A stretch of DNA of 64,000 nucleotides, from NCBI GenBank assembly GCA_001724265.1, contig MEDY01000018.1:62001-126000 (forward strand). Direction: 5' to 3'. Made by a program: the position numbers and the translations under genes. Numbering within the stretch: position 1 is the stretch's first letter; each line of letters starts with the position of its first letter. Below, piece after piece: positions 4,540 through 57,985 of this stretch. This DNA comes from Rhizaria sp. SCN 62-66 (taxonomy: Eukaryota). The notes beneath the pieces were generated by a model that was given only the letters and a program-made list of their open reading frames with translations, was not told where the DNA came from and searched no databases.

Positions 4540-7500
4540 TCACTCTTCAATGAGTTCGTAGTAGAGCATGTACGCCTTGGTGACGAGCAGCGGCGACAAA
4601 TCCCTCAGCGGTTGCACTTTGTCGTCGCTCACCATCACCCAGCCGCTGGGCACGGCCTGTGAGTTCGTGTACGGCTGCGGTCCCTCCTGCTCTTCGTTCA
4701 GCACCGCGGCGGCGGCGGCGGCGGCGTCTTTCTCGACGCGCTCCTTGTCGGTACCCGTGGCACTTGTGTTGGCGCGGGCGGACTCGGCGGCGAGTGGGAG
4801 CGCCGCGGCCGAGCTCTTACTCGCCGCCTCATCATTGCTCTTGCTGCTGCCGTCGCCCTCGCCCTCGTCGTCGTTGTTGTTGCTGTTGTTGCCGCTGCTG
4901 TTGCTGATGGCAGCGCTGGCCTTGGCGGCCGCCGCCTTGGCCTTCGCAGCGGACACGGCAGACAGCGACGCGCCGCCGTTAGCGCATCGCCACTGCCACG
5001 CCTCTGCGCACTTGTTAAATTGCGTCAGCGCCGTCGGGCGCGTCAGTCCGCCCGTGGCCTCGGTCACGGCCGTAGCGACCTGGGCTGCCACGCCGGCGCG
5101 CCTCAGACCGCGCTTCGCTGCTGCTGAGTCAGCAGCAGAACCCGCGGTACTCATGGCGCCCGTAATACCCGGGATACCCGGGATACCCGTGGAGTCCTTG
5201 TTGCTGCCCGAGTCCGCGGTCTGGACGTTGTTGGCATCGTGGAGTGCGGAAATGGGCATGGGCTCTGTATCGCGGCCGCGGCCGGCGGTTTCGCCTCCCC
5301 ACGACACGCCGTGGCGGCGGAAGGCGATGTAGTGGCCCTGCGACGCGGAGCCGAAGTGCGAGACGACCGAATGGAGGCGGTAGCGCAGGCCGCGGGGAGG
5401 GGCGGTGACGACGGGCAGCGGAACACCTGACCCGCCGGTACCAACGGCACCGCCGCTGTTTGCGGAGTTATTCAGCGCGACGATGCTGTTGGGCGCATTC
5501 GCGGCGTTGGCGGCCGCCGCCTTGCGCGCGCCGGAGGACACAATCGAGCTCATGTCGGCCTCGAGGGGGAAGTTGACGACGTGCTGCACCTTGGCGCCGC
5601 CGCCGTTGCCGAGCCGGTCGAGGTGAATCGCGAGCAGCGGCGGCAGGTAGACGAGCTCCGACCGGGCCTGGGTTTTTGCGCGGATCAGAAGCGGCATCAC
5701 CGGCGGCTGCGCATGCTCACGGGACGACGAGCTGGCGTCGTGCGACGGGATGCCGAAGTACCCGGGGCTCGCGGAGAGGTTCTCGGGGTTCAGGTCCTCG
5801 GGATCGACGGCGGAGGCGGAGTTGCGGGAAGACGCGGGACCGAAAAATCCGTTGAACCCATCATCTTCATCTTCGTCGTCGTCGTTGTCCTCGTCCTCGT
5901 TGGTGCCATTGCCCTTCTTGTTGACATGAACATAGCCATCGTCATCCTCGCCGTCGTTCCCGTCGTTGGCCTCGGTCGGGATGTCAATTATATCTTTTTT
6001 GCTCAGGGCTTTCGTCTCAGAAAGCGGCATCATCGCATTCTTGTTATCGCTGGTGTTTTTACCGCCGTCCTGCGCCGCATTGAGCGCGTTGAGCTTCTCG
6101 CGCGCCTCCGTCATCTCTCTTGCCGTCAGCAGCCGCATCATGTCCCCCGCCACGCCCGCCAACGCCAGCGCCTTGAGCCCAGCGACGCCGGCCTTCTCGG
6201 CGGCGGCCTGCGCGCGCGCGCTCGCGGCGGCGCCCGCGGCCGCGGCGGCGATCTCCGTCTCGACGTTAGCGGCCGCGTGGTTGCTAGGCTTAATCCCCGC
6301 CGCGGTGTCGGCGCTGATGCGCGCCGCGGCGGCCAGCGCGGCGCGGCGCGTCGCCAGCGCCGCCTCCTTCGCGGCGGCCGCGGCGGCCGCGCGCGCGGCG
6401 GCGGCCGTCAGCGCGCGGCGCAGGTCCTTGGCCTGCGCACGCAGCCGCGCCTCAAGCACGACGGCGCGCGCGAGCTCGGCGGGCAAGCGGCGCAGCAGCG
6501 GCAGGAACGCGCCGAGCGGAGCGCGCGCGATGACCGCGGCGCCGCCGGTGAGCACATTGGCCAGCGCGGGCGCCGACTGCAGCTGCAGCTCGCGGCGCTT
6601 GGCGGTGACCTTCTTGATCGATGCGAGGACCTCGGCGAGCGTGGCGGCGTCGGAACAGACGGCGCAGACGACCCCGTCGATGGTCTCGGTCGCGGCGTAC
6701 GCGGCGAAGCAGTCCGACAGCGTGACGGCCATGTTGGCCGCGAGCGGCGCGGGCGGCGGCGGCGCGGGCTGCCCCGAGGCCGCGGCGGCGGCGGCCAGGG
6801 AGGCCGCGCGGCGGTCCGCGGCCTCGGTCGGGGATGGGATCGGCAGTTTGAGCACGAAGAAGGGCTCCGGCACGGCCGCGTTGGGCGCGTGGCAGCGCTC
6901 GCAGGTGCGTGATGCGGCCTGCAGGCCGGTGAACGGGGACGGCACGGCGGACACGATGGCGGGGCGCTCGGTGGGGAACATGATCGACTTGGCACTGTGA
7001 TACTGCGAGTCATCGTCAGCATCACTCTTGCTCTCATCAGGCTTTTTCGGAACGCTAGCCTTGCCAGTGTTGTGAGAGCTCACGGTCTTGGTGTTGTCGC
7101 TGTTGCAGTACGCGGAGCGGAAGCCGTTGATGCGCTGCGCCGCGACCGCCGACGCCGAAGCCAGCGCGTCGATCAGTCGCCCAATAGCCTCCTCGGAGTC
7201 GTGTTCAGCGCCGTCACCAAAGTCGGGGAAGCATGAGACGAAAGCGCGGTGCGCCGCTTGGGCCTCCGCGACGGGTGGACCCATGGGGGCGGCAGCGGCC
7301 CGGGCGGGGGGTTTGCCGGGCACGCCGGGGCGGCTAGCGGCCGCGATGTTGGCACTAGGAACTGTCATGCGGTCTGCGAGCGCAACGAGAGCGTCGAGGA
7401 GCTAGAGCAGGCGCCACTGCGCGGGGCCGAAGCTCGCGCGCACGGCGGCCGCGGACCGGGGGGTGGCCGCGGAGCGGGAGGCGGAGCCCGTGAGAGAGGA

Positions 7501-17400: not shown

Positions 17401-20400
17401 CGGCGTACCCCATGTTGCGGACGCGCTTCCCGCTGCGCCTGATGCGGGTCACTCCGCGCGACGCGATTGACCACGTACTGCGCCTGTACTCGCTGCAGAC
17501 TGCCGCGCGGCTGGGGCTCGAGCGCGTCGCCGACCTGGACATGTACACCGATGTAACTACCTCGGCGCTCGGCGTGACCGTGACGACGACGGGCGTGACC
17601 CCGGCCGTGGTGTCCAAGGCGCGCGCTGCTTACGAGCAGCACTGCGCCGAGACGGGCGTCCCCGTCACGGGGCTCGTGCTGCCCCCGCTCACCGCCGCGA
17701 CCGTGGGCGGCACGGGTTCCGCCGTCACGGGTACGGGCGGCGCTGCAGGAACCGTGAGTACCCCCGGCAGTCCCGTGGTGTCGCCAGCGCGCAGCCCGGC
17801 GTCCCCGCTGCTCTCCCCTCTCTCGCCTGGCTCTAGCGCCAACTCTAACTCGGGCTCTAGCTCTATCGTGAGTGCGAGTTCGAGTTCGAAGCAGCGTGAG
17901 GCGCAGCGGCAGCGCAAGCAGCAGTCTCTGCAGCGCCGCGCGGAGCAGTTCGCCAAAGACACCGCGGCGGCCGAGTCCGCGATTCACGCCGCGCGCGCGC
18001 AGCAGCAGCCGCTGGCGCGTGCGCCACGCTCGTTGCCGCCGCGGCCCGTCGCCGTCGCGGATCTCAGTCAGGCCGCGTCGCCGATCGCGCACGGCGCCGT
18101 GGCGGAGCGGCTGGGCAAGATCAAGGCCGAGCGGCTGCGGCGCGCAGTCAACGCGTTCAAGCGGCGGCACCCGCGCAAGCCGCTGCCGAGCAACACCGAA
18201 GAGCTGGTCAAGTCGTGGGGGAAAATGACGGTCGCGGCGGCGGCAGCGGCGAATGAGACGGTGCGTGTCGAGGTCGAGGAGCGGGTCCGGCTCGAAGAGA
18301 GCTGGGAGTGGCGGCTGATCGAGGCACAATGGGTCGACCTAAACCTAGCGTTCGGCACGGACGGGAACACCAAGAACGACGGCGATGATGACGAGGACGA
18401 GGACGAGGAGGACGCGGAGGACGGCGCCAGTAGCGGCGATAAGAAGGAGAAGAAGAAGGATGCTAAAAAGGAGGGTGACGACAAGAAGGGCAAGAAGATG
18501 ACCGACAATGAAGAAGAGGAAGAAGAGGACGGTGTCATCTCAGTCACGACCGCCGCCGCTGCTGCTGCTGCCTCTAAGAAGGAAGAAGTTAAGCCGTTCA
18601 AGGCTTGCACCTGCGTCTGCAGTAATGGCCACCACATTGACGGTGCCGATAACAACAAGAACAAGGACTCCAATGCTACTCCTGCCTCTAGCTCTAGCTC
18701 TAGCTCTCTCTCTGTCCCGAATAAGGATGTTGCTCTTTCTGCCAACGATGGCATCACGGCAAGTGCATGTGACGCCGCTGACGCCGCCGCCGCCGCCGCC
18801 GCCGCCGCCGCTGCCGCTGCCGCTGCTGCTGTTGCTGTTATGGCTGATGACAACAAGCCCGACTCTGACTCTATCTCTGCTGCTGCATCTGCGTCTGCTC
18901 CGTCTGCGAAGGGCGAGGACGAGGATTGGGAGCTTGCGCTCCAGGGCCACGACGCCGACGGCGAAGACGCCGAAGAGGACGCCGCCGCCGAGGCCGCGCT
19001 GATCGCCGCCCGCCGCGCCAAGCTGTTGCGCCAACTCACCCCGGCGGGCCACCACTTCGTGTACCCCGTAGTAGACCTGGTCTCGGAGCTGGCGCTGCCG
19101 CGGGGCTTCGGCGCCGTGCGATGCCTGGCGCGGCAGGGCGCGCTGCTGTTCGCGGGCGGCCAGGGCGGCGTCGCCGTGCTGGACCTCCGCACCGGCCGCG
19201 TCGTGCAACACCTGCTTGCTGGCCGCGCGTTCCGCGGGGCGAGTCAGGTCGTGTCGCTGGTGGTGAGTGGAGACGTGCTTGTCGTCGGGCTCGTGGCGCG
19301 GGGCCCCGGCCGCCGAATTGGCGGCAAGCTCGACGCGAGCTTCCCGCTTAAGGCGCGCTCCAACGTCAACCCGAACGCCGTCAACAACAACAACAACCAC
19401 GACGGTGATGACGCTGCTGCTGAGAATGATGGGCATGCTGAGCACGGCGACGAGGAGCAGCGCGGGCGCCGCACCCGCCGCAGCCGCCGTCGCCAGAGTG
19501 ACCGCCCCGCCGCCGGTGGTGGTGGCGATATCGACGAGGATAATGATGAAGACGCGCTCGACGACGAGGACGAGGAGGACAACTGGGGCAACAGCGATTA
19601 CGAGGACGAAGACTAGGACGAGGACGAGCAAGTTGACGATCTCGGCGACGACCTGGAGGAGGCCGAGGGCAAGTTCACGTCTGATGAGGAAGAGGAAGAC
19701 GCCGAATCAGACGCCAACAACAACAACAGCGACGACACGGGCGACGACGACGGCATTTCGGCGATGATGCGCTCGTTCTTGCCCGGCTACAGCACCAGCA
19801 CTGTCCCCAACCTTGACTCCTCCGCTGCCGACGACACCAACGCCAAGGGTGCTAATGCTAAGAGCGAGAACAAGAAGAAAAAGAAGGAGCCCGTGGTGGT
19901 GTACGACGACAGCATTGCGACCGCTGTGGCGGCCATGGGCGACGTCTCCCTGGGCCCGCTCTCGAGCAGTCTGTCGCCCGCCGCCGTGCAGCGTCTCAGC
20001 GCGCCCCTCGCCGACTCGGGCCTTGTCCGCGCGCCCGCTCACAACGACTGCGGCGGCAAGGTGAAGAAGGCGAACGCTGCGATGACCGACAACGACGACA
20101 AGGACAATAACGACGAGGCCAGCGACAACGCTGAGAGCAGCAGCAGCGCCGCGGCATCCAAGCCCAAGTCTGCGAAGCGCGGCGGCAAGAGCGGCGCGCG
20201 CGTGCGGCTCCACGGCGGCGGCCGCATCGAGGTCTTCGACTGGGTCCGCAACGAGCGTCTCTACACGCTGTACGCGGGGCCCATGCGTCCCACGAGTCTC
20301 GCGCTGCGGCTGCCGACGATCATGGACCACCCCGACATCGCGGCCCCGCGCCGGTTTGCGTTCGGCGACCACGACGAGCACGGCGACGGCGACGGCTCCA

Positions 20401-23399: not shown

Positions 23400-26300
23400 A
23401 TGGGGGTCAAACACCTCTTGAAGTTGATGCGAGACTAGGTCACCAGGAAGACTTCAGTCGACTTTACGAAAGCAGCACTTGACGTTGCTCTTATGCATCT
23501 TTTGATCGACATTGTTGGTCGCAAACATGGTATCCGTAACGCTACTTTGAGCTCTAAAGGAGTCCGGTCCGCCTCCTCGTCCTCGCTTGAGTCGCTTGTT
23601 GATCAGCTCAAACGTCTTGAGATCGTCATCGATGCGGCTGGCATTAATGCCGCGCTCTCTGACGAGGTTGACGCGTATGGCATGTTTGCGGGCCCTCCCG
23701 CGGAGCTGTTTGGCCGCGTCATGGACAAGCTCGGCCCTCTCCTCGCGCCCGCATATCTCGTTCGCACCACCGCGACCAAGCGCACGACGACGACGACCAC
23801 CACCACCACCACAGTCGTTGTCAACCCTGACGACTCTGATGGCAACGCCGCCGCCCTCGCGCCTCGGACAACGGTCTCCGCGCCCGTTCTTGTCCGCCCC
23901 GCCTTTGGGCCCGCATACGCAGAGACAACCATCACGACGCGCCGCCGCCTCGCTGACTCCGCACTCGAGTCCGTGACGGTGACCGTGGTGCGCGACAGCC
24001 TGCGCACGCGCTACGTGACGGTACCCGTGGTGCGCTTGCACGCATCGTGGGACGGCGGTGCGGAGCCGCTCAAGGCGAGCACCATGGTCTAGCGCAGGGC
24101 GGAGTCTGCGCGGAAGGCTGCGCAGATACGCCAACTAACGCGCAACCACGCGCTGGCGGCGCGCTATGCGGACTCGATCGCCGCCGCAGCTGCGGACGCA
24201 GTTAGCGCGGCACGGAATAGCAGCAGCAGTAGCGCTAATTTGGACGCAGAGAATGAGAATAACGAGGCTGAGACTCCTGCGGCTCCGATAGTTGCAATCC
24301 GTCCTCAGAGTCTTCCGCCAGCAGGTGCGTCACAGCGCCTGCCGCTCGAGAGCGGGCTCAACACCGAGATTAAGACGGGTCGCGTTAAGGCGTTTAACCG
24401 CGCGGCGCTGGAGCTGGTCCACGCAAGCGGCGGGCGCAACTACCGCGCCGACACCGAGGGCGACGTGCATGCGCTGTATCTCGCGCAAAAGCTTAACGCC
24501 TTCGCCATTATCGTCGACGACTCGGACTTCTTCCTCTGCCCCGACCTGGGGACGACGTTCATCACGAGTCTGTTTGATCTCACTGCAAGCCCTGCGCAGA
24601 GCTCCAGCGGCAATGTGCAGACGTGCATTCTCTCGCCGCCTGAGGGCCATATCGCAGCGAGTGTGCGCGCCGCGGGCTGGCGCAACAACACAACGAGCCG
24701 TGAAGACTGGTCAGACCCTGCTCCTGAGCATGCCGATGTCTCGGTGGTTCTGCGCAACGCCGCTGCCTCGATGGCCACTGCTGGCGCCGACAGTCACGTC
24801 ATCGGACTCATCTGTAATTCCGTCATCGGACAAACACTCAATCGGCAGTTCAAGGATTCTGCGCTGACAACTGACGCTGCAGCAGCAGCGTTTGACGCGA
24901 CTGCGCGCGCTGATACAGCCACGGTTGCCGCCGCGTCTGCTGTGGCGGCTGCCGCCAGCGCGGGCGCCAATGACGCTGAAACGGCGGCTGTGGTTGCTTC
25001 GTTTTCTTTGAAGATTGAGAGCTTTTCTAGCTACGATACGGTTTACCGCGACGATTTCGACGCTTGCGAAAGCAATCCGTCTCCTTTGTATCTTGCTTCC
25101 GGCTTTTCCCGCATTGCGAACAAGCTCAAGAGCGCGAACGGCGGCAGCCCGAGTGGTCCCTGCATCAGTGAGGCTGATGTCTCCGCCTCAGCGGCAGTAT
25201 CCGCAGCCGAGGCGGCGCTGCGTGTCGCTGAGCAATGCTACAGCCTTAAGCGACTCGAACCAGCTGTGTCGCATTCTGAGCAAGCAGCCGCGAACGCGCA
25301 GCGCAGGCCGTACGTGTGCGTGTTAAGCGCGACTGAGTGGGTCGGACACTACACAGCGCATTACACTGCGGCGGCGCAGTCCGCCACGCAGCCATCGGAG
25401 ACGCAGTCAGCCGCTGAGTGGGAGGACTGCAGCCTCGAGGGTGTCGTGACGCGCCCGGCGACCCGGGCCACGCTCGCGGAGGAGGCCAAGCGCGTGCGCG
25501 GTCTGTCGCGCGAGTGGCGCGCCGGCGCAGGCTGCCTCCCCGCACTGGCGCGGTTTCACACCGCAAGCGCTCCGCTAGTGACCGCGCCGAGCTTTAGCTT
25601 CGATACGATGCGCGCGTTCGCGCAGAAAGAGCTCGAGGCGACGCTGATGCAATGCCATCTGCCGATGATTGGCGTCATTTGCGGCAATGACATGATTCGC
25701 AGCAAGGCGCTTCGCTCTTTGATGTGGCGATATAACACATTCCGTTCTGACATGTACGTCGTAAAATCGGGCCCGTCTTTCTCTTTCTTGTCCTTATTTG
25801 CCTGATTTCGTATTAATGAATCTTGTATTTTCGCTTAGCCTCACGTCTCTGTTTGCTTAATATGCTTGTGTTGTATTAACAGTGAGAAGAAAAACAAGCT
25901 TGCCAAGGGTCTCAAGATTGCGCTGCAGTTCAACATTGCGATGCAACCTCCTCCTGAAGTCGAAGAGGAATATGATCCTTCTAAAGACATCAAAGTTACG
26001 ATGAAGCTGTTATCGCAATTGTACACCAGTCTTGAAAGCATCCACAATGCTCGTCATAGCTCTAACTCGACTGCGTCTCAGCCCTCACAGCCCGCGCCCG
26101 TATGCCGTTTCGCACTGCAGTCAGCCGACCTGCGCTCCGCCGCGCAGCTTGCCAGCGCGACTGCGCAGCTGCCGCGCGAGGCCGTGATGGCGCTGATGCT
26201 CGTGACGGAGATGTTCACGCATGTTGTCGCCGGCGGCAGCTGCGAGTCTGTGCTCGACGGCTGCCGCGCCGCGCCCGCCGCCTGGACCGACCCGTGGAAG

Positions 26301-32267: not shown

Positions 32268-35200
32268 ATGAGTCACCACTCTAAAGGTGACTCACCTGCT
32301 GAAAAGGGCGCCCAGCATGAGACGGAGTTACAGAGCTCTCTTCACGCTACCATGGCCACCAGCACTGCAGGCCAATCAGCCCTAGCAGCCGAGCTTGTCC
32401 CAAGGCAACACAGCGCCAACATTGCAGCTACCCAAAATCTTGCTGTTTAGAGCGGCGCAGTGGCCGCGCCCGAAGCCAACACTGGTGACGACAGCAAGCC
32501 GTCGCTTTCTCCTCTCTCGCCAGTCCCGGTCACTGCTACCGTCACAACGCGCAGCAACAACAGTAGCAACGTGATTGCAACCACAAGCAACTGCAACAGT
32601 CCGTACAATAGCCGGTCAGGGGGCCTCCGCGTTGACCTGAGCGACTTTGGATTTCACACTAGTCGTGACAGTGCGACTGCAGCTGCTGCTGTTGCTGCAG
32701 GCGCTGGCGCTGATGCCCGTGCGAACGATGGCACTGCTGTTGGTGTAGCGAGCAGCAGCACGAGTAGCGTGGTTGTGGCGACAATGGCGCAGGCTCCGTC
32801 AACATGCATCCTTGCGCCCCCTCCTGAGCCTGGCCGCTTTACTGACACTGAGAGTGCCAGAGATACTACGACTAACATTGCAAACAGCAGTGGCGCCGCG
32901 GCAGACGGCAACGACGTAAGCAGCAATACGCGTGACAGTCTTGCTCGCAACCTTGGCGGGACAGACGTGGACATCGGTTTTTTTAACCATGGTGATCGTC
33001 TCACAGTCGCTCCAAGCCACGGCTACAGACCAAATGACGGTCTCCGTGGCAACAACAACAACATCGCAAGTAGTGTTGCAAGCGGCAGTGACGTATCAAG
33101 CGTCGCCCCCGCCCCGATTGTTCTGCACACGCGGTCTGTCCCCGTAACAATGACTATGGGCGGAAGCAGTAGTCATGGGAACAGCGGCAGCAGCAGGGGC
33201 AACGGTGCTGGAGGCACTATCGGTAGCGCATTTGCTGGAAGCAACTCCGGGACAAGTTTGGCTGGCACAAGGACTCTGTTCACCCGACCGCTCCCGGCAA
33301 CTCCAGCACCATCGCTATCGATGTCACAGTCATTGCGCTTGGCACAACTTCCCGAGGAATGCGACTTTGCTGCGGATGTCATCAATGGCTTCCAAGCGAT
33401 GCAAATGTGCAACGATAACAGCTATATCACGACTGCTCTCGGCGACGATACCCTCACGCGCGCACTCAACGCCACAAATAACAGTAGCCGTGATCCGACT
33501 AATTCCGTGGGCGTCAGCATCATCGCTGATTCAGCTGGGCTCTTCAACCAACAGAGTCAAGCAAACGCGAACCCCCACACTCTTGCGAACGCATATGCTC
33601 CAAGTGCAAGTGTGGCAAGAAACACCCTTGCTACACATAACAGTGGCGGCGAAAGTGAGAAAAAACAAGCGCAAAACAACGACGCCCGTGTCGACGAGCT
33701 TGATAGCAGTGGAAGTGAGAGCAGCACAAACACAAAGACTCGTGATACTAGGATCATCTCGGGCATCATTACTTCAGACCTACACAATCCGCAAACTAGC
33801 AGTAACGCTAATACGACAGCGCACAATGATATTGTGTTGCAAGAGCAAAAGCAGCAACAACAAGAGTATGCACTGCTGCAGCGTCAGATTGCTCTAACTC
33901 AGCTAAACAGAAGGCCAACGCAGTTGTTCAACACCTCGCACAACAGCAGCACCCAGTCACAATCGGCAGTGCCAACGCCAACCTTGCCACGCGCACGCGC
34001 ACTCTCCAACGCACACGGCATTGTCTCGGGCGCAAACAACACCAATACCAACGGCTGCGTTTACATCGACAACAATACTGCAAACGGCTCAACATCTAGC
34101 AGTGGTGCGAATAACAGCGCTAATAGTACAAAATGTGGCAGCAGAGTAAGGTGGGGCCGCTCTGTGACTGCAGCGCCAACTCCGGTCGACACCCCGACAG
34201 CTCTAACACCAACTGTAATCACCCCGCATCTTCTCAACCAGTACTACAACACACCTGACGTGTCCACAGCTGCTGAGCATTTGCCTGCGACTGGTAGAAT
34301 TCCCGCAGTCATTACTGTTGTTCCGAGCGCTCACTCACCTGCTGCCATAAGTCAGTTCCAGCTTCCGCCGCCACCTCAGTCGCCCTCAGTACACGCAAAG
34401 TCTTCCGCAACATCTTAGAACAACTTGCGTGTTACGAGTGAAAGCGGTGCAAACACTGAAACTGGCAACAGAAGCTCTACCAGCACAAGTAGCAGTTTGA
34501 ACAACGATTGCATCGGCAGTGACAGCGGTAATTGTGTCGCCAGCGGTTTCAATGCTGCTAACAACAGCTCGAAAAGGGTGACAACTGTGACTGCAGAGCC
34601 AGTCTTAGCTGATGTTGCTTCAGTGCCCGATGCAGCGGTTGTACCAGCCATTGTAAAGCTAAAGCACACACGCTATAGCTTTGGTATTGCTGACAGCTCA
34701 AACAGTGATGGTGGCAACAGCAACATGAGTGCGTCGACCTTTAACAATGCCAACACCAAGAACGATCCAAAGCCGAGTAAGAAGCTGATGCCGTTCTTTC
34801 GTCGCGTGAATGTTGACCCAAGCAGCAATGTGACCGCAGCAGCAGCAACCACTGATGAACCAACGTCTGGTGCTACTGCACCTGAAGTTGCCTGTATTAA
34901 GTCTAACGAAAGCAGCAGTCTGTCACATCTCTTCGGCAACAACCAAAGCGGCGCTGAAGATGTGTCTGAGGTTGCAGATAAGGTTAGCACAAGAGCTATT
35001 TGTCGGGCTATGGCTAATAGCGCTGATAACTGCTGCAGCTCAGATACACAGTCAGTAAGCTTAGTCCAGGCAGGACTCTTGCGTATTCGCACTGCCGCTG
35101 CTACCACGCTTGCAACACTCACAAACAACACGGCCACTGCCGCAAGCAAATCGCTAAGGGTCACTGTCGGCGAACAAAATGATGCAAATTATGCTAGCGG

Positions 35201-38200
35201 CATAAGCAGCAAGCGCACTAACGCCCGCGTAAACAACGGCATTGTTGAGTTTCCGTCCCCACCCGCACTTACTCACACTCGCAGTGCAACAGGTCGCGGC
35301 AACGCTTACATAGCTGCAACAACAGCGCATTTGCCTCTTAATGTCTGTCGTGCGACGAGCACGAGCAGAGCTACTGGTACCGCAAATGAATCAACTTCGG
35401 CCGCGGATGCAAGAAGCAGTGTGTGGTGGTGGCCGCTACGCTGGATTGGCATTGGGTTAGAGCGTTCTAGTGAAGGCTATTACTATTAGCAGCAGCACAA
35501 TCACGACGACGACGATCCCACCGACACCAGCGCCCATGGGAACAACGCGCGCACTGTTGGCGCCGAGCGGCAGTTTCTCTCGCCAATGTCACCACTACCG
35601 CCGCCTGCAGAAATGCCAAACATTAACTCCGCTGCGCACAGACATTACATGCAACAGCAAGAACAAATCCGACACGCTTCTGTTGATGATGTTAACAATG
35701 CGACAGGCGTCAACGGCAGCAGCAGTTTAGGGATTGGTCTGACTGGAAATCTAACAGGGCTTTCAACAAATGGCAGTGGTCGGTCTTTGATAGCGTCCTC
35801 TGCAGCCGCGGCAGAGCCTGAAATCGCTCGCGGCAGTGCTAACGATGGACGTATATTTGCAGTTATACGCTCATCGGGTGACGCAAGTGCAAGCACCCCA
35901 TTGACTCCATCTCCGCTAACGCTGTTTACGCTTACTATTGCTGTTATCAGCGTAGTCACTCTATGCGTACATCTGTACACATCCGTGGCGTTTGCTATCA
36001 ATGGCAGCAATAGCGATGCCGGCAACAATGGTTACGGCAATGATCTGTGGTGGTACGGAGTGACTGAGAGCTTGCCCTTAGATCCACGGCCACCGGGCAC
36101 GTACAACGAGAACGGCGAGCTCGTTTCTGTTCTGAGTAAAGTTGAGTCCGACATTGCGGACGGCAAATCTATTGGCGGCGTGGCGTTTGCGTGGCAGCAA
36201 CGCGATCGCAAACCTTATTATCCGTACCTTACGCGAATTCATGCTGATAATATGGTTAGCGACGAAACTGTAGGACCGCGATCTCACGTTGTAACAACTC
36301 TCCACGCCAACGTTGACACGGCTACAAGCACCAATACCGCCAGGGCTAGCTCCGGTAACAGCAACACTAATGCTGAAACTGACGATAGCGACTCCCTTGT
36401 TGCAGTCTCGCGTGTGTCACTGCCTCGCTCGATCGGGCATAACGAAGGTGACTTTGGCTATGTTCCTTTCATCTCAGCACTAACTTCGACATCAGGGCTG
36501 CAGTACTACGTCCCAAGGCACCATACAGCGCGCGTATGCGCACGCAATAATCCAACAGCCGCGTCCTCAACTGCATCGGCAGCAGCAGCGCGGCTGCGGC
36601 GGTGGTCGCGGCTCCACAATCACACTCACGGTCGGTATGGCACGGATACGAGTGATCGCGGAGATCGCGACCGCAGTAGCACTAGCAACGCTAGTGATAA
36701 GGACGACGATAGTTGGGCAGCTGCTGCGTGTGCGCCGAAGAGTGATGTCAGCAAGGACTTATATTACGACCGCTACATCGACGACGGCTTAACTTTGGAA
36801 GAATCCGTTTACTCTGATGACGACGATGAGAGCGACACAGTTGCTGGTGTCACCAATCTAAATAGCAACATAACTTCTCGGAGCAACAACGATGCAAACA
36901 CAAACGCTACGACAATCTCGGGGAGTCACAAGCCTGAAGAAAACGCAAGCGCTGCTCGTGTGACTGCGACAGTAAGTGCCAGTGTTAATGGTAGCAACCC
37001 GGCCGAGACAAGGACGACAGGTCCCTTTGCTGGCGATCTTACCAGCAACACGGCTGATGCAAGCCGTGCAAGCGCCGGTGCTGCCCCTACTGAGACAGCA
37101 ACAACCGTAACAACCACCGTCACCGAATCGAACACTGTAGCGAATGCCACGGACGCAAATAATAGCACAGCTACAACAACTACGACGACAACAACAGCAA
37201 CAGAAGTTGCTCGCAGGCGCGCGCGATTTGTTGCGCCAACCTTTGAAGTGCCCACAGTTAGTGTGGCAAGTCTCGAGCACTGGGCTCACATCCCATCTCT
37301 GAAGCCACGTGCTGATGTAACCGAAGTTCCCGTACGTTTTGAAAACGAAAGAAATCAAACTTCAATGTTCATATTGTCTACAAACCGGTTGCAACAATGA
37401 AAAGACTGTTTTCACTTGAAATGACGATATCACCTTCGTACTTTGACCGTGAACTCATTTTACATTTCTTTTCAACGAGTGCTCATTCCAGATCTTGGGC
37501 GACTGGGGAGCTGTAACTCCTGCGCAAGCTCGTGTTGCAGCACAAATGCGCGCATACTTTGCATCTCGTCACGTCCCTTTCGTGGTCTCAACTGGAGACA
37601 ACATCTACTCGACGGGACTTGCTGAGGGTGGCGGCTTGATTTCAAAGCACGCGCCGCAGCGGCGTGCTGTGAGGCAGAAGGCGCGCAAGAAGCGAGAGAA
37701 CAAAGAGTTTGCGAGTGTGATTGCAAACGGCAAGCGCGACCGCGGGCGCTTAGTCAATGTTTTAGAATCATCGCGTGATAACATTGTTACAAGTGATTTG
37801 ATTCATACGACTGCGCCGAGCCATCGAGCTGCAGGTGAATCTGCAGCCTCAACGACAGCCACAAGCGCAACACTCACAACAGATAATGAGCACACTCTTG
37901 ACGTTAATAACCGTGCAAGTGATTATAGTCGTGAGCGTATTGAGACTAAGCGTGAACGTGATATCGCAGAAGATAACGGCGACTTGATTGATGGTATTTT
38001 TGAGGATCCGTACATTGACACTGCTCCAAACGTTCCTTGGCACTTAACCATGGGTAACCACGATTGCTATGGTGATGTTGACGCGATGATTGAGTACACA
38101 AATGCGATCGACCCTGCGACTAAACTTCCGTACACGCGACTTAATTTCCCAGCGCGATATTACGAAGTCGATTTGCCCATACCTGCTGCAAAGAGAACAA

Positions 38201-39552
38201 CAACGCCAGCAACAGGTTCTGCAGCCGCCAGTTCTACTGACAATTACGGCAACAATACGGCCACTTCCGGGGGCACCAGCACAACCAACGCCGGCTTTGT
38301 TCGTTTTCTGTTGCTAGATACATGCTCTCTTGTCTGTGCTGACCCTAACCACGCTGTCAACATGTACGAGTACTTACAGTGCAAACACATGCGTCACAAC
38401 GCATTAACTGCAACGCGCGTTGCGCAATCCAAATGGCTTAAGTCTCGCATCATCAGCGCTGAAACGACAGAAAGCATTCGCGGTGTCGTGCTTGTTGGTC
38501 ACCACCCTGCGTTCTCAGTTGGTCCCCATGGAACAAACCTCGCGCTCTTGTCATTCCTAGGCTCCGCAGTGCGTGGCCGCAAGACGCTGATGTACGTAAG
38601 TGGGCACGATCATACGCTGCAACACTTTGAGATTCCGCGCGATAAGTGGGTTGGCGCTTACGGCTTCGTCGAAAATCCGATTAAGCGCTACTCTTTCATG
38701 AAACAGCGCAACAGCAGCAATGCTCAAGGCAATAACGATGACTTGCCACCGTTTCATCAAGTTGTTTCCGGTGCAGGTGCTGTTCGCGCTCACGGCCAGT
38801 CCTACCACGGTCCGTTTCCTCCCATGCTGTTCCCGTACTCATCACGCGCCCCGGGGCTTAAGCGCTGTTTTGAACACTGGGGAAGAACGCAGGCTGTTGT
38901 GCGCGGCCGTGAACGCACGTCCGCTCGTGACCGTATTCGTGACCGTGATCTTGATAAAGAGTGCGGGCAGCCTGGTTCTGGTGTCATGGAAGCAGCTGTT
39001 TCCGCAGCGTTACGCATTCCCACTGATAGGCGCATTTACGACGCAAGCGATGACTCCGCTGATGGCGGTAACTCAACCAATGCTAGCCCTGAGGCTCTTG
39101 CACGTAATCAATGCAGTGACCCTCGCGGCGACTGCGGTCCCACCTTCGCGCCATTTACTGACCCCAAGCGCGACTACACAACCGTAAACAACAGAGCCAC
39201 CGCCAGCCCCGGCCCTCGCTCGCGCTCTCGCCATGGTGGTGCTGACTCGAGCCGTGACCGTGAGCACACAGCGAAAGAAGGAGACCGCTGGTTTGTGCCT
39301 CGATTAGAGCGTTTTCCGCATCCTAACCCATTTCTCGCCCCTGAAGCCACGCTTTATAGATATCCGCACTACTTAGCAGGGCTGCCGCAGTGGTTCGAGA
39401 GTTATCAAAACGCGTTGCCGGTACCGGCGGCGCAGATGTTTGGTGCGACTACTGGCTTTGTGACTCTGCGCGTTTCGCGCTATGGCGTGAAATGTGTGTT
39501 TATAGACGCGGAGGGAAGAGTTATTCACCAGTTTGCGCAGTTGTACGCCTGA
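32268..39552 (+). CDS. Membrane-anchored purple/tartrate-resistant acid phosphatase-like metallophosphoesterase with a very long low-complexity N-terminus, ~2374 aa. Exons 32268-37331 and 37492-39552; in-frame TAG at 32448, 34416 and 35487
   Basis: Metal-ligand motifs ILGDWG, STGDNIY, GNHD, VGHHP and YVSGHDH, plus VVSGAG. TM helix LFTLTIAVISVVTLCVHLYTSVAFAI. The four upstream ORFs (32268, 32460, 34425, 35586) share one frame and are separated only by TAG. Ends TGA. The start position is less certain than the catalytic domain. Confidence 0.78.
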
Positions 39553-39933
39553 ATCAAGGCGACATCGCTCAACCGTGATTAAAACAAACAACACTTTCTC
39601 CTTTTGACCAATGGCATGTTACTCACCATGGTCACGTCGAACAATGTTGATTCACAAAGATAATATCGGATATGACATTTACATGTACATTTTTATTATA
39701 CTCAAGTACGAGCAGTTCAGTCTAATACTACCTATCGGTATTATCAGACTCATTGTAGGACGAAACCAAGCTAAAGGAACAGTGAAATTAAACACACAAT
39801 AAACTCAACAGCTCCCCTGACCCGAACTAACACTAAGTCACCCCAGCTAGCAACGCCAGCAAAGCATGTAATCTCAAGAAAATAAGCTCTCTTGCTTGAC
39901 CATCGTCTCATACGACACCGAGCCTCATGTGCT

Positions 39934-42900
39934 TCACAGCAAGTCACCAGCGGCAGCAGTAGTCGCAGCCGCGGGGGCAGGGGCAGGAGCAGTGGTACCG
40001 TTGGCCTTGGCCTCGTCCCACGCGTGCTTGGCGATGCTGTAGGCCACCTTGTCCGTCGTCGCGGCGTCGACGGCCTTGATTTCGCTGATCGCACGGTTGA
40101 CGTACGCACGCCACGCCTCGCCATCCTGCGGCGCGCTCGCGGCGACCGCCGAAGGGGCCACCAGCCTGCGCTGCACGCGCGGCGACATGATGAGCGACGA
40201 CGACGGTGACAGCACCGCAGGCGCAACAGTCGCGTTGACGCTGCTGCTGCTCTCTGAGGTGCTGCTCTCGGCAGCGGTCACCACAGGCGCCCCCGCAATT
40301 ACTGTCGCGCCGCCCGCACTAGCGGCGTTGGCGGCGTTGACGGCGGCCGTAATGCTCGCGGCGGACGTCAGTGTGAGCGTGTTGCGCTTGGCCCGGATGA
40401 TCGAGGGCCGGTTGAGCGCGGCCTTGGGGTCCGCGCTGGGATCGCGCTGATGGCTATCCCACTTGGCCTCGGGGTCGTGCTTGATGACGTCGGCCACGAG
40501 CGCGGAGATCACGCGCGCGCGCACATCGGCGTCGTCGAGCGTCGACGCGTCGAACGACTCACCGATGTCGCTATCATCATCATCCTCAGCAGCAGCGGCC
40601 GCGGCGGCCTTGGCGAGGGCGGCGGCGCGCTTGGGCTTGAGACCGGTCGCAGTCGAGCCTGCGGCGGACTCGGGGCCGACCTCAGAGCCAGAGCCAGACG
40701 CAGCAGCGGCGGCAGTGGCAGCGGCAGCGGGGGGCTTGCCGCCGCTGCCGCGAGCAGGCGGCAGAGTGACAGCGGGGGCGGCGGCGGCGGGGCCGGCGGC
40801 GGCGACGTCGGCCTTGGCGGCGGCCATGACAGCGGGGTTCGAGGCAATGGCCTGCTCTTGCTTATCGCCCACTGCCTTGCGCTCGGCGCGGCGCGCGACC
40901 TTGCGCATGCGGGCCTGAGGGATGGGATGCAAATGAAAGGAAACCAGAGTGATGAAGATGTGAGATAAAAGGCATAAATGTAGATAAATCGGCAGTAAAG
41001 TATAAATTAAGTTAAAAACACCTAAATACATTCTAGAACATAATACTACGGCATATTGCAGGGGAATCATAGAGATATATGCGCACCTCCTCCTGGCGGC
41101 GCTGAACCTCCTCGGGCGACAGCGAGCTCTGCTTCTTCTTGGTCTCCTCCTCCTCCTCCGCAGCCAGCGCGGCGGCGGCGTCGGTGCAGCCGGCCTCGGC
41201 GGCGGCGGCGCGCGCAAGCTTGGCCAGGCGGCGCTGCTCGAACAGCTCCTGCGCCTTCTGCTCGGCCTTGATGCGGCGACGCTCCGTCAGCATCTGTGGC
41301 GAAAGCAAAACATCATAGAAGACAACATAGATTTGATGTAGCACAAGATATGAGAGAATTGAAAAAAAACGCGGATTCTACACAAATAATGTAGAAGCAG
41401 AGCTTGAATTATCATAATATTGTAATTTGGTTTTTTTGAGTGAGATAGATGCGAATAAGCGTACCTCCTGCGTGGCCGCGGTGGGGCCGACGAGCTCCTG
41501 GAAGCACGACACAAGATACTCCTTCTGCCTGCACAGATAGTACTCGTAAATGTACCCGCCAACCTCGCGACGCATCTTGTACTTGTTGTCGCGCATCTCG
41601 GTCCACCCGGCGGCGCGCGCCGACTCGGGTGTCATGGTCTCGAAGTAGCAGCACGTGGCCACGGCCATCGAGAACTCGGGCGAGCAGCCCACGAAGAAGG
41701 AGCCGCGCTCTTTGATGAACACCTGCCCGTCCTGTGTTAGAGTGTGCGCAAAATCAAAATTAAAACATAAAGTTGAATGAATATAAGTTAGATTGATGTC
41801 AGATTGATGTCATGCGAATTCGTTGGAAAAAAAAAAATGGCAAATCATGGTGTTTTGTTCATGATAACTAGGCGTACCTGGTCCCAGCGGAACTTGATGC
41901 ACACAAAGGGCGCGCCAATCTTGGACAGTGAGTTCTTCTGGTACTTAGTGCCCAGGAAGTCGACCAGCTGCTCGAGCTCGTCGATGTAGAACTTCATCCA
42001 GTTGTGGTAGCCCAGCACGTTGCCGACCTTCTCTCCGTCGGGAATCGAGATCTCGCCCATGAACACGTGCTCAAAGCCGCTGCAGTAGCGCACAATCACG
42101 CGCTGACGCGTGAAACCCTCGGGGAGCGCCTCGCCGTCCTCGCCGTCGTTCGCGGCCTTAGCCTCAGTGCTGCTGTGGCCGCTGTTAGCGTTGGCCTCGT
42201 CGTTGCTCTTGGCCTCGGCCTGGGCTACGGCGAGCGCGGCCTGCGCCTCTTCGAGCTTGGTCTTGGCCTCCGCCAGCCGCGCAGTGAACTCCTCCACCAG
42301 CCTTTCGTCGCCCTTGGCCTCGGCCTTGGCGATGCGCTCGTTCTCGGCCTCGACATCGCGCTGCGCGGCCTCGAGCTCGCGCAGGCACTGGGTGACGCGG
42401 GGTGCCACGACCTCGTCAACCGTGAGCGTGTGGAGCTCAAACCACATACGGAACATCTTCTTCTTGAACTGCGCGGGTGTGAACTCGAACTTAAGCACCT
42501 GCGTTATGTAGATGTACGCCGCCTGCATGGCCGGGGTGATGAGGATGGCGGTGAGGAAGTCGTCGATTTCGTCGAGCTCGCCGTCGTTAAGGTACTCGAT
42601 GTTGTTCACCCAGGCGTCGTAGTTGTCCATCAGCGCCAGGAACGTCTTGTACGTGGGACCCGACATCGCGGCCGTCTTAACCGTGTGGAACAGCGGGTTG
42701 GGCGCCGCGTCGTCGAGCGAGTCGGCAGAGCCGGGCGCGCGGGACTGCTTGTCGAGCAGGATATCGGCGTTGGGATCGACCCAGGTGCCGTCGTCGTCGC
42801 GGTCAGAGACAGAGCAGCGGTTCACGTCGGCGTCCCAGATCGTGTCGAGGATCGTTTGCGGAGTGAGGGCTGAGGCGTCGGGCAGCTTGACCGAAGCCAT

Positions 42901-43782: not shown

Positions 43783-44561
43783 ATGCTTTCCTCGATCCGC
43801 TGCACCGGCTTCGGCGTGCTCTCCAAGTCGGGCATGTCCCTTCTCTCCGCGTCCACTTCCTTCACCGCGGGCTCTTCCCTCTCCTCGCCTGCCGCGTTCC
43901 CGGCCACGCTGGACCTTGTCCGCACGGCCACCAAGAAGGCCGGTGGTGTCGTCGTCAACAAGTCCGACTCCGCCGGTCGCCACCTCGGTGTCAAGCGCTT
44001 CGGCGACGAGGAGGTGACTGTGAGCAACATCATCGTCCGCCAGCGTGGTACCAAGTACCACCCCGGCCTCAACGTCTACATGGGCAAGGACCACACGCTG
44101 CACGCCGGCGTTGACGGCAGTGTCAAGTTCTCCCGCGCCTACATTGCCGGCCGCAAGCGCGTGCGCAAGTGGCGCACCTACGTCAGCGTCATCCCCGCCG
44201 GCCAGACCGACCAGGTTCGTTTCTCTTTCCTCACCTCTTCTCAAATCTCTCAGTTTCGCTGTGATATATTCGCTATGTTGGATGGTACTCTGCTCAAGCT
44301 GTAGTTCTATATGTGTTGGCTGTTTTTGTGTCATACTCTGACTCTCTATCGTCTTTTGTTTCGAATCTCACTTTCTCTCTACCCCGTCCCTTGCTTTGCC
44401 ACTTGCTGTGCTTGTATGACGTATAGTGCGTTGTCGACTTCACCGCGACGCAGCAGTACCGCCTGCTCGACGACCCTATCTACCGCCAGATGCAGAAGGA
44501 GCGCCACGTCAAGAACGCCTTCCTCAACGAAGACTTCGCCCCCAACAGCCGCTATGATTAA
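43783..44561 (+). CDS. MRPL27: Mitochondrial ribosomal protein bL27m, ~188 aa. Exons 43783-44214 and 44427-44561
   Basis: Presequence-like N-terminus, then ATKKAGG...[13 protein letters not shown]...[33 protein letters not shown]...TAG intron. Ends TAA. Confidence 0.92.
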
Positions 44562-45159: not shown

Positions 45160-47636
45160 TTAGATCTCCTCGCCCGCGATGCGGTCTAAGTACGCCTGCC
45201 ACGCCTCATCACGGTACCGGGCCGCCGCCGCCGCGACAGCATCCTTGCCCCACTCGCCCTCGCTCCCAACCACCTCGCCTTCCGCCGCCGCCACGGCCGC
45301 CGCCCCCGTTGTGGCTGCCGCATCCGTGGCGGTTGAAGACGAGGCGTCAGTCCTATCTGTTCCACTGCCAGCGTTGGTGTTCGGCACATCAGCTGCAGTG
45401 GCGGTAGCTGGGGTGTCCTTAGATGGCTTGGGGCGGTGTAAGTATTTGATGATGCCACGCCCGACGATGATGACGTCCGCGTTGCGGGCCATGACGGCGC
45501 TGCGCACAGTCACATACTGCTGCCCAAGCTTGTCACCGCTCACGCCACTCGGCGTCGGAGCGCCAGAGCCTGTGGTGGCTGCTGACTCTGCAGCGGGGAC
45601 CTTAGGCTGAGCCGGTGTGTTGATGTCGGGCATGCTGACGCCCGGGGTCATCATCACGAGTTCCAACGCCCGAGCCTGTCCGCCGCCGGGTGTGGTTACT
45701 GCAGGGCTAGCGCTGTAACTGCTGCCAGTTGAGTTGAGAAGCGGTGCGCGCGACATCATCTCAGTGCCTTGTCCGATCAGGCCGCAAACCACACTCCCCC
45801 GGTATGCTGCAGTGTTCTTGCTCTTGTTTGCAGCGTTGTTGTTGTCAGCGATCATGGCGATGGCACTGTCGGTGTATTGCTAAGTCAGTAAGTTGCCCTT
45901 GCTCGACATGTGCGCGAGCAGCAGCACACCGCGCGTGCCGTGACTCGGCTCACGCAGCGCAGACACAATGGCGCTGGCAGCAGCGCCGTGACCGGAGCCA
46001 GCCGTGCTGCTGCTTGTGGTGTTCAGGTTGCCCGCGTCAGATCTAGCGCTGTTTTTGCTAAGCTCGGTAATTGCCTCGCTAACGCCGGTAAGCAAGCCAG
46101 GACCTGGAAGCGCATGTGCCGTGATCATGTGAGCCCACTATAGGGGCTTGAAGACGCCACCGCTGCACTGCAGCATTGCCGTGTGACCGATGTCACTAAG
46201 CTTACGATCCTCGAACAAGAGGAATCTACAACGACAAAGGTAAACATGTAAGTCTTAAAATAATAAACATTTGAATGACATTGAATCTCAATCGAAGGAG
46301 CAAACTCAGCGTTAATTGATGGAAGTAGAAAGATAACGTACCCATGCTTGATTGCGAGCCCACTCAGCGCTTCGGTAACTTGTGAAGTGAAATCGCTAAG
46401 GATGTCGACATGCGTCTTTAACACCGCGATATAAGGCCCCGCAGCGTCTGCAACTGCAAGCAAGTCTTCCGTTGTCGTGACATCGGCAGACAGGCAGAGG
46501 TTGCTCTTCTTAGCGCACATCAGCTCAAACAGGGACTGTGTGACAGGGTGACAATGCAGCGCATGGCGCGCCGGGAAGTTAAGTCGTGAGCTCACAGTTA
46601 CTGCGCGCGGTCCCGAAGTTACACCGCCGTGGTTACCAGTTGTCGCAGCATCAACAGAAGCAGCAACAGCAGGAACATGAGCAGCAGAAGCAGCAGGACC
46701 AGCAGCAGGACCAGCAGCGCCACTGCTCATGCTGCCGACAGTCGAGACAGCAGCAGGCGGTGACGCGGTGACCGCACTGGGGCTTATCTTTGCGCCTGCG
46801 CCAGTGCCTGTGCTAGCGCCAACCTGGTTGTTTTTGATGAAGTCGAACACACGGTCAATGACGTCCTGCTCCAGGAGACTCTCCTTCTTCAGCACCTGCA
46901 TCATCGTCGTGATCGTGAGCACCGCGTGCAACCGGATCCCGTTGCGCCGCAGCACCGCCGCGCCGCCCTGCTCGCGGTCAATCAGCACCACCACGTCCGT
47001 GACGGCGATTCCGCTGTCGTTTGCCGTGAGAGGCGCGACGGTCTCGAGAACCGATGCGGCACTCGTGACCAGGTCTTCCACAACAAGGCAGTTGTCGCCG
47101 GGCTTCCAGGAACCCTCGATAAGCTTGCCCGTGCCGTAGGACTTAACCTCCTTGCGGCGCATTACCATGGGGACGTTGTGCGCCAGAGACATCACAGTCG
47201 CGATTGGCAACGCAGTATAGGGCACGCCACAAAGCAACTGGTAACGGGTGTTGCTGCTCTTTGTCTCCGCATTCTCGCCCTCACTCTGCGCTAGCGCAAC
47301 ACCACCGTTTGCTGCGTTTTCGGTACTAGCAGAGGACGTAAGCGTGGTGCCCGCGCCGTCGCTGTGCGTGTTACCTGGCGCAGTGAACGTGTTGGCCTCG
47401 TCCCACATCAACCGCGCAGTCTCTTGCAGCAGCTCCGGGTGCGACACCAGCTCGCGCAGGTCGATGTAGATCGGGGACTCGAGCCCGCTCTTAAGCGTAA
47501 ACGTGCCAAATTTAACCGCGCCAATACGGTGCAGCGCGAGCACGAGCGCGTTGATCGCGTCAGCCTTGCGGACCGCAGGCGCTTTGGGGGCGGGCGCTGG
47601 GACGGCAGCGGAGGCACTCTTCTTGCGCGGTGGCAT
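45160..47636 (-). CDS. UMPS: Bifunctional UMP synthase (OPRT + OMP decarboxylase), ~786 aa. Exons 47636-46342 and 46225-45160; in-frame TAG at 46140-46138 and 45882-45880
   Basis: OPRT motifs: FGTFTLKSGLESPIYIDLR, CGVPYTALP, RRKEVKSYGT, VVEDLVTSAAS. ODC motifs: NLCLSADV, LKTHVD, FEDRKLSDIGHT, LLLAHMSSKG, MTPGV, GDKLGQQY, DVIIVGRGI, YRDEAWQAYL. Ends TAA. Confidence 0.95.
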
Positions 47637-57000: not shown

Positions 57001-57985
57001 CGGTCACCGTGAACGCGATCGGCGCGGTCAGCGAGCCTACCACAGTGCCGTTGCCACTGCTCGTCGCAGTGCTTGCGCCCGCGCTCAGAGGGCTACTGAG
57101 GGCATTGGGGAGGCGTTTGTGTGACAGTGGGGGCGGGATGTCGCCGCGCGCCTCTAAGTACCTCCGAACGTAAGCCGCACCTAGAAGCGAGGCGTCGCAG
57201 GGCCGCACAGCGTTGACGCGGGAGAGGTACTCGACGGCGTTAGCGTACGCGGCGTCGGCGTCGTAGGACGCCGGCAGCGCGACGGCGGAGCTGTCGCTTT
57301 GCGCAGGAGAATTCGACATCGCAGTAGACGCTGGCACAGTCGTGTGGCTACTGTCGGACTGAGCAGGGCTCTCGCTAGATGCTGCGGTGTCGGCGACAGG
57401 CGCGGCGCCAGTCTCCGCACTGCTGCTAGCCTCAGTCGCAGCAGACTCGGCCACAGCAGACTCGGCCACAGCAGCAGCAGTAGAAGCGGATGCAGATGCA
57501 ATGGGAAGTGGTGTAGCTAGGCAAGGGTACGTCTCAGGCCCCTGTGCACTCGCACCCTCGTCAATACTACCGCCTTCGTCCTAAGACTGCGCGTGCGAGC
57601 GCCCAAAGAACAACGTGGCCTTCGCCTGCGCAGCAGCGGCCGCAGCAGCAGCGGCAGCGTTGGCGGCGGCGATGGCGTTGGCGGCGGCGGTCGGTGTGAA
57701 GGACAAGGGGACGCCGAAGTGGCGGTGCGCGGAGGCAAGCGGAAGCAGGCGCGGGGACACAGGCTCCTTGGCCCACACGGCGCCAACATAAGTGCTGGTG
57801 TGGGAGTTGGAGGCCTGAGTGACTGGGTTTGCAACAGAATCTGCGGCGGTATCGCTGGCGGGCGTTGCAGAGGTGGTGGCCGCGGCGGCGGCGGCTGAGA
57901 GAGCGCGCTGGACGACACATTGCGCAGTAGCGGAGGCGCGGAGTGCGGTGTGCCGGGCGGTGCGCCGGGCGTGCGCGGTGAGCAT
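48008..57985 (-). CDS. Giant, probably mitochondrial, degenerate FolC/folylpolyglutamate-synthase (Mur-ligase fold)-like protein, ~3224 aa. Exons 57985-56902, 56761-51747, 51583-48008; in-frame TAG at 57583-57581
   Basis: Arg-rich, acid-free presequence. Two phase-compatible introns join the ORFs. Collinear FolC-like segments such as FTVTGDLGATE...SLRGRISINGVPV, EITALTSALVFARAQVPIAVYD and DTLAHTAWCLAG. Ends TAA. The gene model is firmer than the family assignment, which is by eye. Confidence 0.65.

Follow-up and report, generated by a model that had tools for sequence, protein, structure and literature searches.

Two In-Frame TAG Codons in a UMP Synthase Gene and Probable Decoding of UAG as a Sense Codon in a GC-Rich Wastewater Eukaryote

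A 64,000-nucleotide stretch of contig MEDY01000018.1 (positions 62,001 to 126,000 of the forward strand; here called the window), assembled as Rhizaria sp. SCN 62-66, encodes on its minus strand UMP synthase (UMPS), the enzyme of pyrimidine synthesis that joins an orotate phosphoribosyltransferase (OPRT) domain to an orotidine 5'-monophosphate decarboxylase (OMPDC) domain. Two TAG codons were found in frame within its decarboxylase barrel. The data presented here make it highly probable that UAG is decoded as a sense codon in this organism and that UAA and UGA remain terminators. A sequence-only reading of the same DNA had proposed such a recoding, and it is now supported by the retention of conserved columns, by an identity to relatives that stays steady past the TAGs, by the interruption of other genes by TAG only, and by the occurrence of TAG at 0/17 gene ends. 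The window is probably nuclear DNA of an uncultured, GC-rich eukaryote from wastewater and bioreactor communities. Translation of both UMPS TAGs would yield the full TIM barrel, and UMPS and at least five other proteins would be made whole only if TAG is translated.

The UMP synthase gene and its two TAG codons

The UMPS gene comprises two exons and 786 codons, beginning with an ATG at 47636. Its features are as follows.

46342..47636, minus strand: UMPS exon 1, OPRT domain and first part of OMPDC; 431 codons plus 2 nt, without an in-frame stop
46226..46341, minus strand: UMPS intron, putatively spliceosomal; 116 nt, AT-rich, GTACGT...TTGTAG
45163..46225, minus strand: UMPS exon 2, remaining OMPDC barrel and lineage-specific low-complexity inserts
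46138-46140, minus strand: in-frame TAG no. 1, codon 461, immediately followed by a Trp that is invariant in 58/58 homologues
45880-45882, minus strand: in-frame TAG no. 2, codon 547, two codons ahead of a conserved Tyr, within the loop that follows the M-S-S-K-G-N-L motif
45160..45162, minus strand: UMPS terminator TAA; the C terminus ...YRDEAWQAYLDRI aligns to homologue C termini

In a phmmer search of the PDB, exon 1 matched the human OPRT domain 2wns over residues 27-81 and 128-268 (E value of 1.3e-53), and residues 334-428, the last 95 of this exon, matched OMPDC chains. The Pfam family OMPdecase (PF00215) was detected in both exon 1 (E value of 9.7e-10) and exon 2 (E value of 1.5e-21), and exon 2 matched 41 distinct PDB sequences of OMPDC or UMPS with E values down to 1.1e-22. 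Both domains expected of a bifunctional UMP synthase, the N-terminal OPRT and the C-terminal OMPDC (PF00215), were therefore found, and their order and catalytic motifs are the same as in human and other eukaryotic UMP synthases (2wns, 2qcc, and others). Unlike those enzymes, the one studied here has two in-frame TAGs and long low-complexity inserts, and exon 2 shares just 28-31% overall identity with its best homologues from outside the clade. Homology and splice signals together suggest the intron, whose removal fuses ...LAIKHG with FLLFEDRK in accordance with the homologue consensus. Under the standard code the frame is interrupted by the two TAGs and is open only if TAG specifies a residue; read in that way, the 786 codons contain no frameshift and no TAA or TGA. 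The best explanation for these features is that the locus is a working OPRT-OMPDC gene.

Both TAGs lie inside the OMPDC barrel, as the sequence-only reading had it; codons 461 and 547 form the exact ends of the interval that it had marked, and the peptide strings that it quoted agree with our translation. It had further assigned the first TAG to the polar position of an I-x-[E/S/D]-W-A-D motif and the second to a site just before a conserved YT. In an alignment with 58 homologues, TAG no. 1 occupied the variable polar position of I-A-x-W-A. The columns flanking it had I (55/58), A (43/58), W (58/58), and A (52/58), and the site 1 column itself held mainly polar residues (D26 E10 S8 N4 R4 H2 A1 Q1 T1 K1), in line with that assignment; the partner residue is Ser in human UMPS and Asp in both PDB 8u0z and the relative P0181. 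TAG no. 2 follows M-S-S-K-G-N-L-L-T and precedes Q-Y-T, so that its position was given correctly but a Gln codon intervenes between the TAG and Y-T. The site 2 column was more varied (G16 E10 A8 S6 D5 K4 P4 R3 Q1 T1), with Gly in the PDB chains, Pro in P0181, and Gln in P0183, which carries this Gln in an otherwise identical G-N-L-L-T-x-Q-Y-T context. The tabulation of both columns that had been proposed as a check thus returned Leu in 0/58 and Trp in 0/58 homologues at each site. A clade-profile protein search, the third of three, yielded no additional close relatives; the 14 distant homologues that it added carry S, D, R, T, or E at site 1, and at site 2 they have R, A, E, G, D, S, or P. Neither TAG can be spliced out, as each is bordered immediately on both sides by residues that align.

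The claim that catalytic and substrate-binding motifs are intact on both sides of the TAGs was upheld by a test of 59 columns with a conservation of 90% or higher across the 58 homologues. UMPS retains 48 of the 59, including FEDRK..DIG, MSS, LGQQY, and VGRG. Eight others are conservative mismatches (F>L, A>S, V>A, I>P, L>V, A>I, F>L, and P>V), and the remaining 3/59 fall in an alignment gap at the N-terminal cut.

The closest UMPS relatives in three large protein searches were P0181 (246 amino acids, 45-48% identity) and P0183 (171 amino acids, 53-54% identity), the only two above about 40% identity. One comes from a 7.9-kb NCBI contig and the other from a 3.2-kb Joint Genome Institute (JGI) contig, and they may be orthologues of related species or paralogues. 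Identity to P0181 was 39/84 between the TAGs and 66/147 after TAG no. 2, and identity to P0183 was 79/157 after TAG no. 2. This identity is steady, and therefore there is no decay of conservation downstream of either TAG. When prokaryotic genome contigs were searched with P0181, 22 loci were obtained, each of them a pyrF gene of bacteria or archaea (26-32% identity). In a further database OMPDC homologue, the 483-amino-acid P0182 (42% identity), the barrel segment seemingly occurs twice in the alignment, which may reflect a tandem duplication or a misassembly.

The letters of the gene were compared among independent assemblies. The runs that contain a 3-kb stretch with UMPS number 14 and belong to 10 metagenome studies (bioreactor, wastewater, and activated sludge; 2015-2025). 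Contigs of X2 (45672-46692) and X4 (45943-46996), which belong to other studies than the likely source of the window, exhibited 0 differences from it. TAG no. 1 is covered by the X2 and X4 contigs, and TAG no. 2 is covered by the X2 contig and by record 30 of X7, a 364-nt contig (45677-46040) from a polyA metatranscriptome in which this TAG is unchanged and which likewise has 0 differences. No alternative letters were seen at either UMPS TAG in any of the four runs compared, as judged from contigs rather than reads. RNA of the organism is present in X5, as indicated by a spliced contig (44212^44425, GT..AG) from the neighboring gene for mitochondrial ribosomal protein L27 (mitochondrial L27). 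A metagenome scan with TRM8, another gene of the window, for which the patterns proved too narrow, yielded only a 2.8-kb JGI contig that belongs to the same organism and matches TRM8 at 100% identity. The database open reading frame (ORF) fragments P0001 and P0180 begin just after each UMPS TAG, on 3 contigs.

In-frame TAG codons in the rest of the window

Every stop triplet in the six frames of the window was subjected to a stop-joining test, in which the open stretch on either side was measured. Stops flanked in their own frame by at least 200 open codons in either direction comprised 6 TAG, 1 TGA (antisense), and 0 TAA; with at least 150 open codons on both sides, the numbers were 8 TAG, 4 TGA, and 0 TAA. 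TAG is nonetheless the rarest stop triplet in the window (841, versus 1899 TGA and 964 TAA). The four TGA cases are all antisense to long coding ORFs, in GC-rich frames that are open by chance. Six of the eight TAG cases were in frame with long sense-strand ORFs; of the other two, one was antisense and one intronic (44302). This last TAG was rejected as a sense codon since it lies in the mitochondrial L27 intron and is spliced out in the X5 contig. The two terminal TAGs of an EF-hand ORF (184-1788) were also rejected, being intron acceptor sites after a GTACGT donor.

In total, 10 in-frame TAGs were found in 6 genes, within 17 coding segments comprising 14,260 codons (0.07% of codons). Beyond UMPS, eight TAGs were located in five other long ORFs.

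7402..7404, minus strand: in-frame TAG in a ubiquitin-hydrolase (UCH) gene, codon 250 of 1203
19614..19616, plus strand: in-frame TAG in an alternating Glu/Asp run, codon 1072 of 1544; GAG GAC GAA GAC TAG GAC GAG GAC GAG
23436-23438, plus strand: in-frame TAG, codon 13 of an 801-codon ORF; could precede the true start
24090..24092, plus strand: in-frame TAG, codon 231 of the 801-codon ORF
32448-32450, plus strand: in-frame TAG, codon 61 of a 1710-codon ORF; could precede the true start
34416..34418, plus strand: in-frame TAG, codon 717 of the 1710-codon ORF
35487..35489, plus strand: in-frame TAG, codon 1074 of the 1710-codon ORF
57581..57583, minus strand: in-frame TAG, codon 135 of a 365-codon ORF segment

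Only the two UMPS TAGs among all 10 fall in alignable conserved columns. Two other TAG-bearing ORFs had no usable Pfam domain at E values up to 1, so that their TAGs could not be aligned. No common 3' context or downstream motif was found at the 10 TAGs. The 17 gene or ORF ends examined were TAA in 8 cases, TGA in 9, and TAG in none.

The three TAGs of the 1710-codon ORF (32241-37397) lie in a part of the window (32000-40000) with about 52% GC, where this ORF and a metallophosphatase-like ORF (37453-39549) have a GC content at third codon positions (GC3) of about 0.51, compared with 0.7-0.93 in other genes.

Residue identity, mechanism, and rival explanations

To estimate the residue specified by UAG, each of the 20 residues was placed at both UMPS TAGs on a fixed tree (61 sequences, 260 columns, LG+G4). 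Over the two sites, the likelihood was distributed as Glu 0.41, Asp 0.33, Gln 0.083, Asn 0.036, Pro 0.030, Ser 0.028, Lys 0.026, Leu 0.001, and Trp ~0. Relative to Glu, the log likelihood (lnL) was lower by 1.6 for Gln, 2.7 for Ser, 6.0 for Leu, and 10.7 for Trp. Among the residues with an anticodon one change from CUA, Glu was ahead of Gln by about 5 to 1. The TAG at 19614, amid a run of GAG, GAC, and GAA codons, also suggests Glu. Weighing against Glu are the Gln at site 2 of P0183, the closest relative, and the literature, in which reassigned UAG most often, and by a wide margin, specifies Gln. These comparisons support a polar residue. The prediction that it would be polar rather than Leu or Trp was accordingly borne out, albeit at two sites only, with Leu 6.0 and Trp 10.7 lnL below Glu. 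We would place Glu foremost, with a chance somewhat below even, and Gln behind it as a possible but less likely choice; Ser, Lys, or another residue would account for the remainder.

The decoder would be a dedicated tRNA with the anticodon CUA, judging from other UAG-only codes as described in the available portions of two papers (PMC5304391; PMC11687900). UAA would be kept as a stop because tRNA(CUA) cannot pair with UAA. By the same analogy, eRF1 would probably have a weakened recognition of UAG.

Several points weigh against the reading of UAG as a sense codon. Neither component of the proposed machinery was found in the window: ARAGORN detected 0 tRNA genes in the 64 kb, there were 0 Rfam hits, and eRF1 is not in the window. 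The RNA support consists of one contig, from a library that may contain DNA; among the matches listed, no RNA covers TAG no. 1 and no RNA contig bridges the UMPS intron. Two of the ten TAGs (23436 and 32448) could be upstream of real start codons. The sample of terminators is small, and some of the ORF ends counted may be exon ends. The occurrence of 0 TAA or TGA in 14,260 codons is circular, given that the segments are ORFs bounded by TAA or TGA; the stop-joining test is free of this circularity. If the TAGs were random nonsense mutations, this codon usage would make TAG account for 61% of the stops reachable in one step, which gives a p value of ~0.008 for 10/10; by itself, the 10/10 is thus supportive but not overwhelming. 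Finally, the residue inference rests on two alignment columns.

UAG might be reassigned only in part, either through near-cognate read-through or through a dual, context-dependent meaning by which it is sense inside genes and a stop at some ends. Such a state would be compatible with the rarity of TAG (10 in 14,260 codons), with the lack of a tRNA(CUA) in the 64-kb window, and with occasional TAG terminators, given that just 17 gene ends were examined; context-dependent codes have also been described, in some ciliates and in Blastocrithidia for UAA, in the available text of PMC11687900. We nevertheless regard it as improbable. TAG was at 0/17 ends, its 10 in-frame occurrences have no common 3' context, and it interrupts 6/16 genes examined, including an essential enzyme, so that weak read-through would be costly. 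A different view would be that this UMPS copy is a pseudogene or under relaxed selection, with the TAGs as nonsense mutations, and that a second copy or pyrimidine salvage serves the organism. The two premature stops under the standard code, the status of TAG as the likeliest one-step nonsense codon at this codon usage (0.61), the long low-complexity inserts, and the eight substitutions in highly conserved columns would all fit decay. The gene, however, is free of frameshifts, its 786 codons include neither TAA nor TGA, its conservation after the TAGs equals that before them, its catalytic motifs are intact, and the TAG-only pattern recurs in five other long genes. As for a second copy, the three protein searches gave just 100%-identical fragments of the same gene, with the next matches at 45-54%, and no second OMPdecase was found by Pfam among the 52 scanned of the 143 window ORFs of at least 150 amino acids. 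Decay of UMPS is therefore considered very unlikely.

Editing of stop codons in mRNA has a precedent in fungi, and A-to-I editing, by which UAG would be read as UGG (Trp), would favor UAG and hence a TAG-specific pattern such as that observed; TAG no. 1 is also the site without RNA cover among the matches listed. Against editing, the contig from the polyA library has 0 differences over TAG no. 2 (although contigs can drop rare variants), no alternative letters were present at either TAG in four runs, and Trp was the worst-fitting residue, 10.7 lnL below Glu and found in 0/58 homologues in both columns. These data leave editing with a slight chance, smaller than that of decay. Errors of assembly or sequencing deserve mention as the source is a metagenome assembly, but we give them next to no weight: independent assemblies from other studies and years (X2 and X4) have identical letters, the JGI contig is 100% identical over TRM8, and the database fragments P0001 and P0180 start just past each TAG on 3 contigs. 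Derivation of the window from a giant virus or an organelle was discarded in view of its spliceosomal introns and its nuclear-type genes for mitochondrial proteins. Decoding of UAG as a sense codon, with UAA and UGA as terminators, is the reading that we retain.

The organism and comparison with known UAG codes

The window has a GC content of about 60%, with a coding GC3 of 0.5-0.93 and AT-rich introns and spacers. Exons are long, introns are 116-212 nt, and the proteins have inserts rich in Ala, Ser, and Asn. The window also encodes a mitochondrial carrier, NDUFA12, and mitochondrial L27, which is indicative of an aerobic eukaryote. Affinity was assessed with TRM8 (30970-31740, minus strand), for which environmental relatives share 53-77% identity (P0061-P0067, P0070, and P0075) and the best named match is an unidentified cercozoan with 56% identity. 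In a TRM8 tree of 34 rows, the window fell within a clade of ten environmental sequences (support of 100 in the Shimodaira-Hasegawa-like approximate likelihood ratio test, SH-aLRT). The split that set apart 19 opisthokont rows left the window with the cercozoan; the tree has one named non-opisthokont row. This single gene gives a hint of rhizarian affinity, and its clade suggests a diverse unsampled lineage.

Other observations were made in the window. The mitochondrial L27 gene contains an intron, and this and two further introns, at ~190-298 (minus strand) and 46226-46341 (minus strand), all start with GT(A/T)CGT and end with TAG, so that GT(A/T)CGT...TAG may be the splice-site consensus of the organism.

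44215-44426, plus strand: mitochondrial L27 intron, GTTCGT...TATAG; spliced contig in X5; coding sequence of 188 codons, TAA at 44559

A zinc alcohol dehydrogenase gene (21398-22486, minus strand) has a GC3 of 0.93 and neither an intron nor a TAG, and it may be highly expressed or recently acquired. At 40600-41200, where there are GC-rich repeats of low complexity (GCG/GCC runs), the X4 DNA contigs exhibited numerous short-sided joints and loose ends, which appear to be cross-matches from repeats or other organisms and not rearrangements.

We tentatively propose a code in which UAG specifies Glu and UAA and UGA are still stops, in a non-ciliate and possibly rhizarian wastewater eukaryote of a diverse environmental clade; this combination is put forward as a possibility, at less than even chances. 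If true, it would be a codon table not on record for a nuclear genome in the parts of the literature available to us. Within the main texts of the open-access literature, our searches did not find a UAG-only nuclear reassignment described for any wastewater eukaryote or for a GC-rich non-ciliate like the present one. Codes that split UAG from UAA demonstrate that translation is capable of distinguishing these codons, and a further independent case, in a GC-rich, intron-containing, aerobic eukaryote seen in wastewater reactors across ten studies, would be a data point on how such codes originate. It would also have a practical consequence, in that standard-code gene callers will break about one-third of the genes of this organism; UMPS is present in the database as the two fragments P0001 and P0180.

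UAG-only nuclear reassignment is already known as a rare kind of code, of which the present one would be a further case. Nuclear codes that split UAG from UAA have been described in fewer than 10 lineages, going by the available portions of PMC5304391 and PMC11687900; the statements below on individual codes likewise follow the available portions of the papers cited. Codes in which UAG specifies Glu match our top candidate and are known from an oligohymenophorean ciliate (UAA = Lys, UAG = Glu; PMC10553269; PMC11687900) and from Blastocrithidia and peritrichs (UAR = Glu; PMC12153298; PMC11687900). There, however, UAA is reassigned too, whereas here UAA ends 8/17 genes, and the GC content of about 60%, the long source contig, and the introns of 116-212 nt are not ciliate-like. 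UAG is reassigned with UAA still a stop, as proposed here, in the green alga Scotinosphaera (UAG = Ser), in Protocruzia and two phyllopharyngean ciliates (UAG = Gln), and in three phyllopharyngean metagenome-assembled genomes (UAG = Leu) (PMC11687900). Ser, the residue in Scotinosphaera, was 2.7 lnL below Glu in our test, and no link of the window to the Scotinosphaera, Protocruzia, or phyllopharyngean lineages was found.

The two remaining codes have UAA and UGA as stops. In the fornicate Iotanema spirale, UAG specifies Gln (PMC5304391); there, as is proposed here, UAG alone is sense and UAA still terminates. With about 8% of Gln codons, UAG is a minor codon in that organism (PMC5304391), and it is rare here too. 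Gln is one of our two leading candidates and is the residue of P0183 at site 2, although it was 1.6 lnL below Glu; I. spirale is an anaerobic metamonad, whereas the window has genes for mitochondrial proteins and GC-rich coding DNA. In the rhizarian exLh (Sainouroidea), UAG specifies Leu (PMC5304391). Like the code proposed here, that of exLh has a UAG-only reassignment and the terminators UAA and UGA, and the nearest named TRM8 match of the window, a cercozoan, is a single-gene hint in the same direction. UAG is abundant in exLh (384 in 71 genes; PMC5304391) and rare here (10 in 14,260 codons), and Leu fits poorly at the UMPS sites (0/58 in both columns and 6.0 lnL below Glu).

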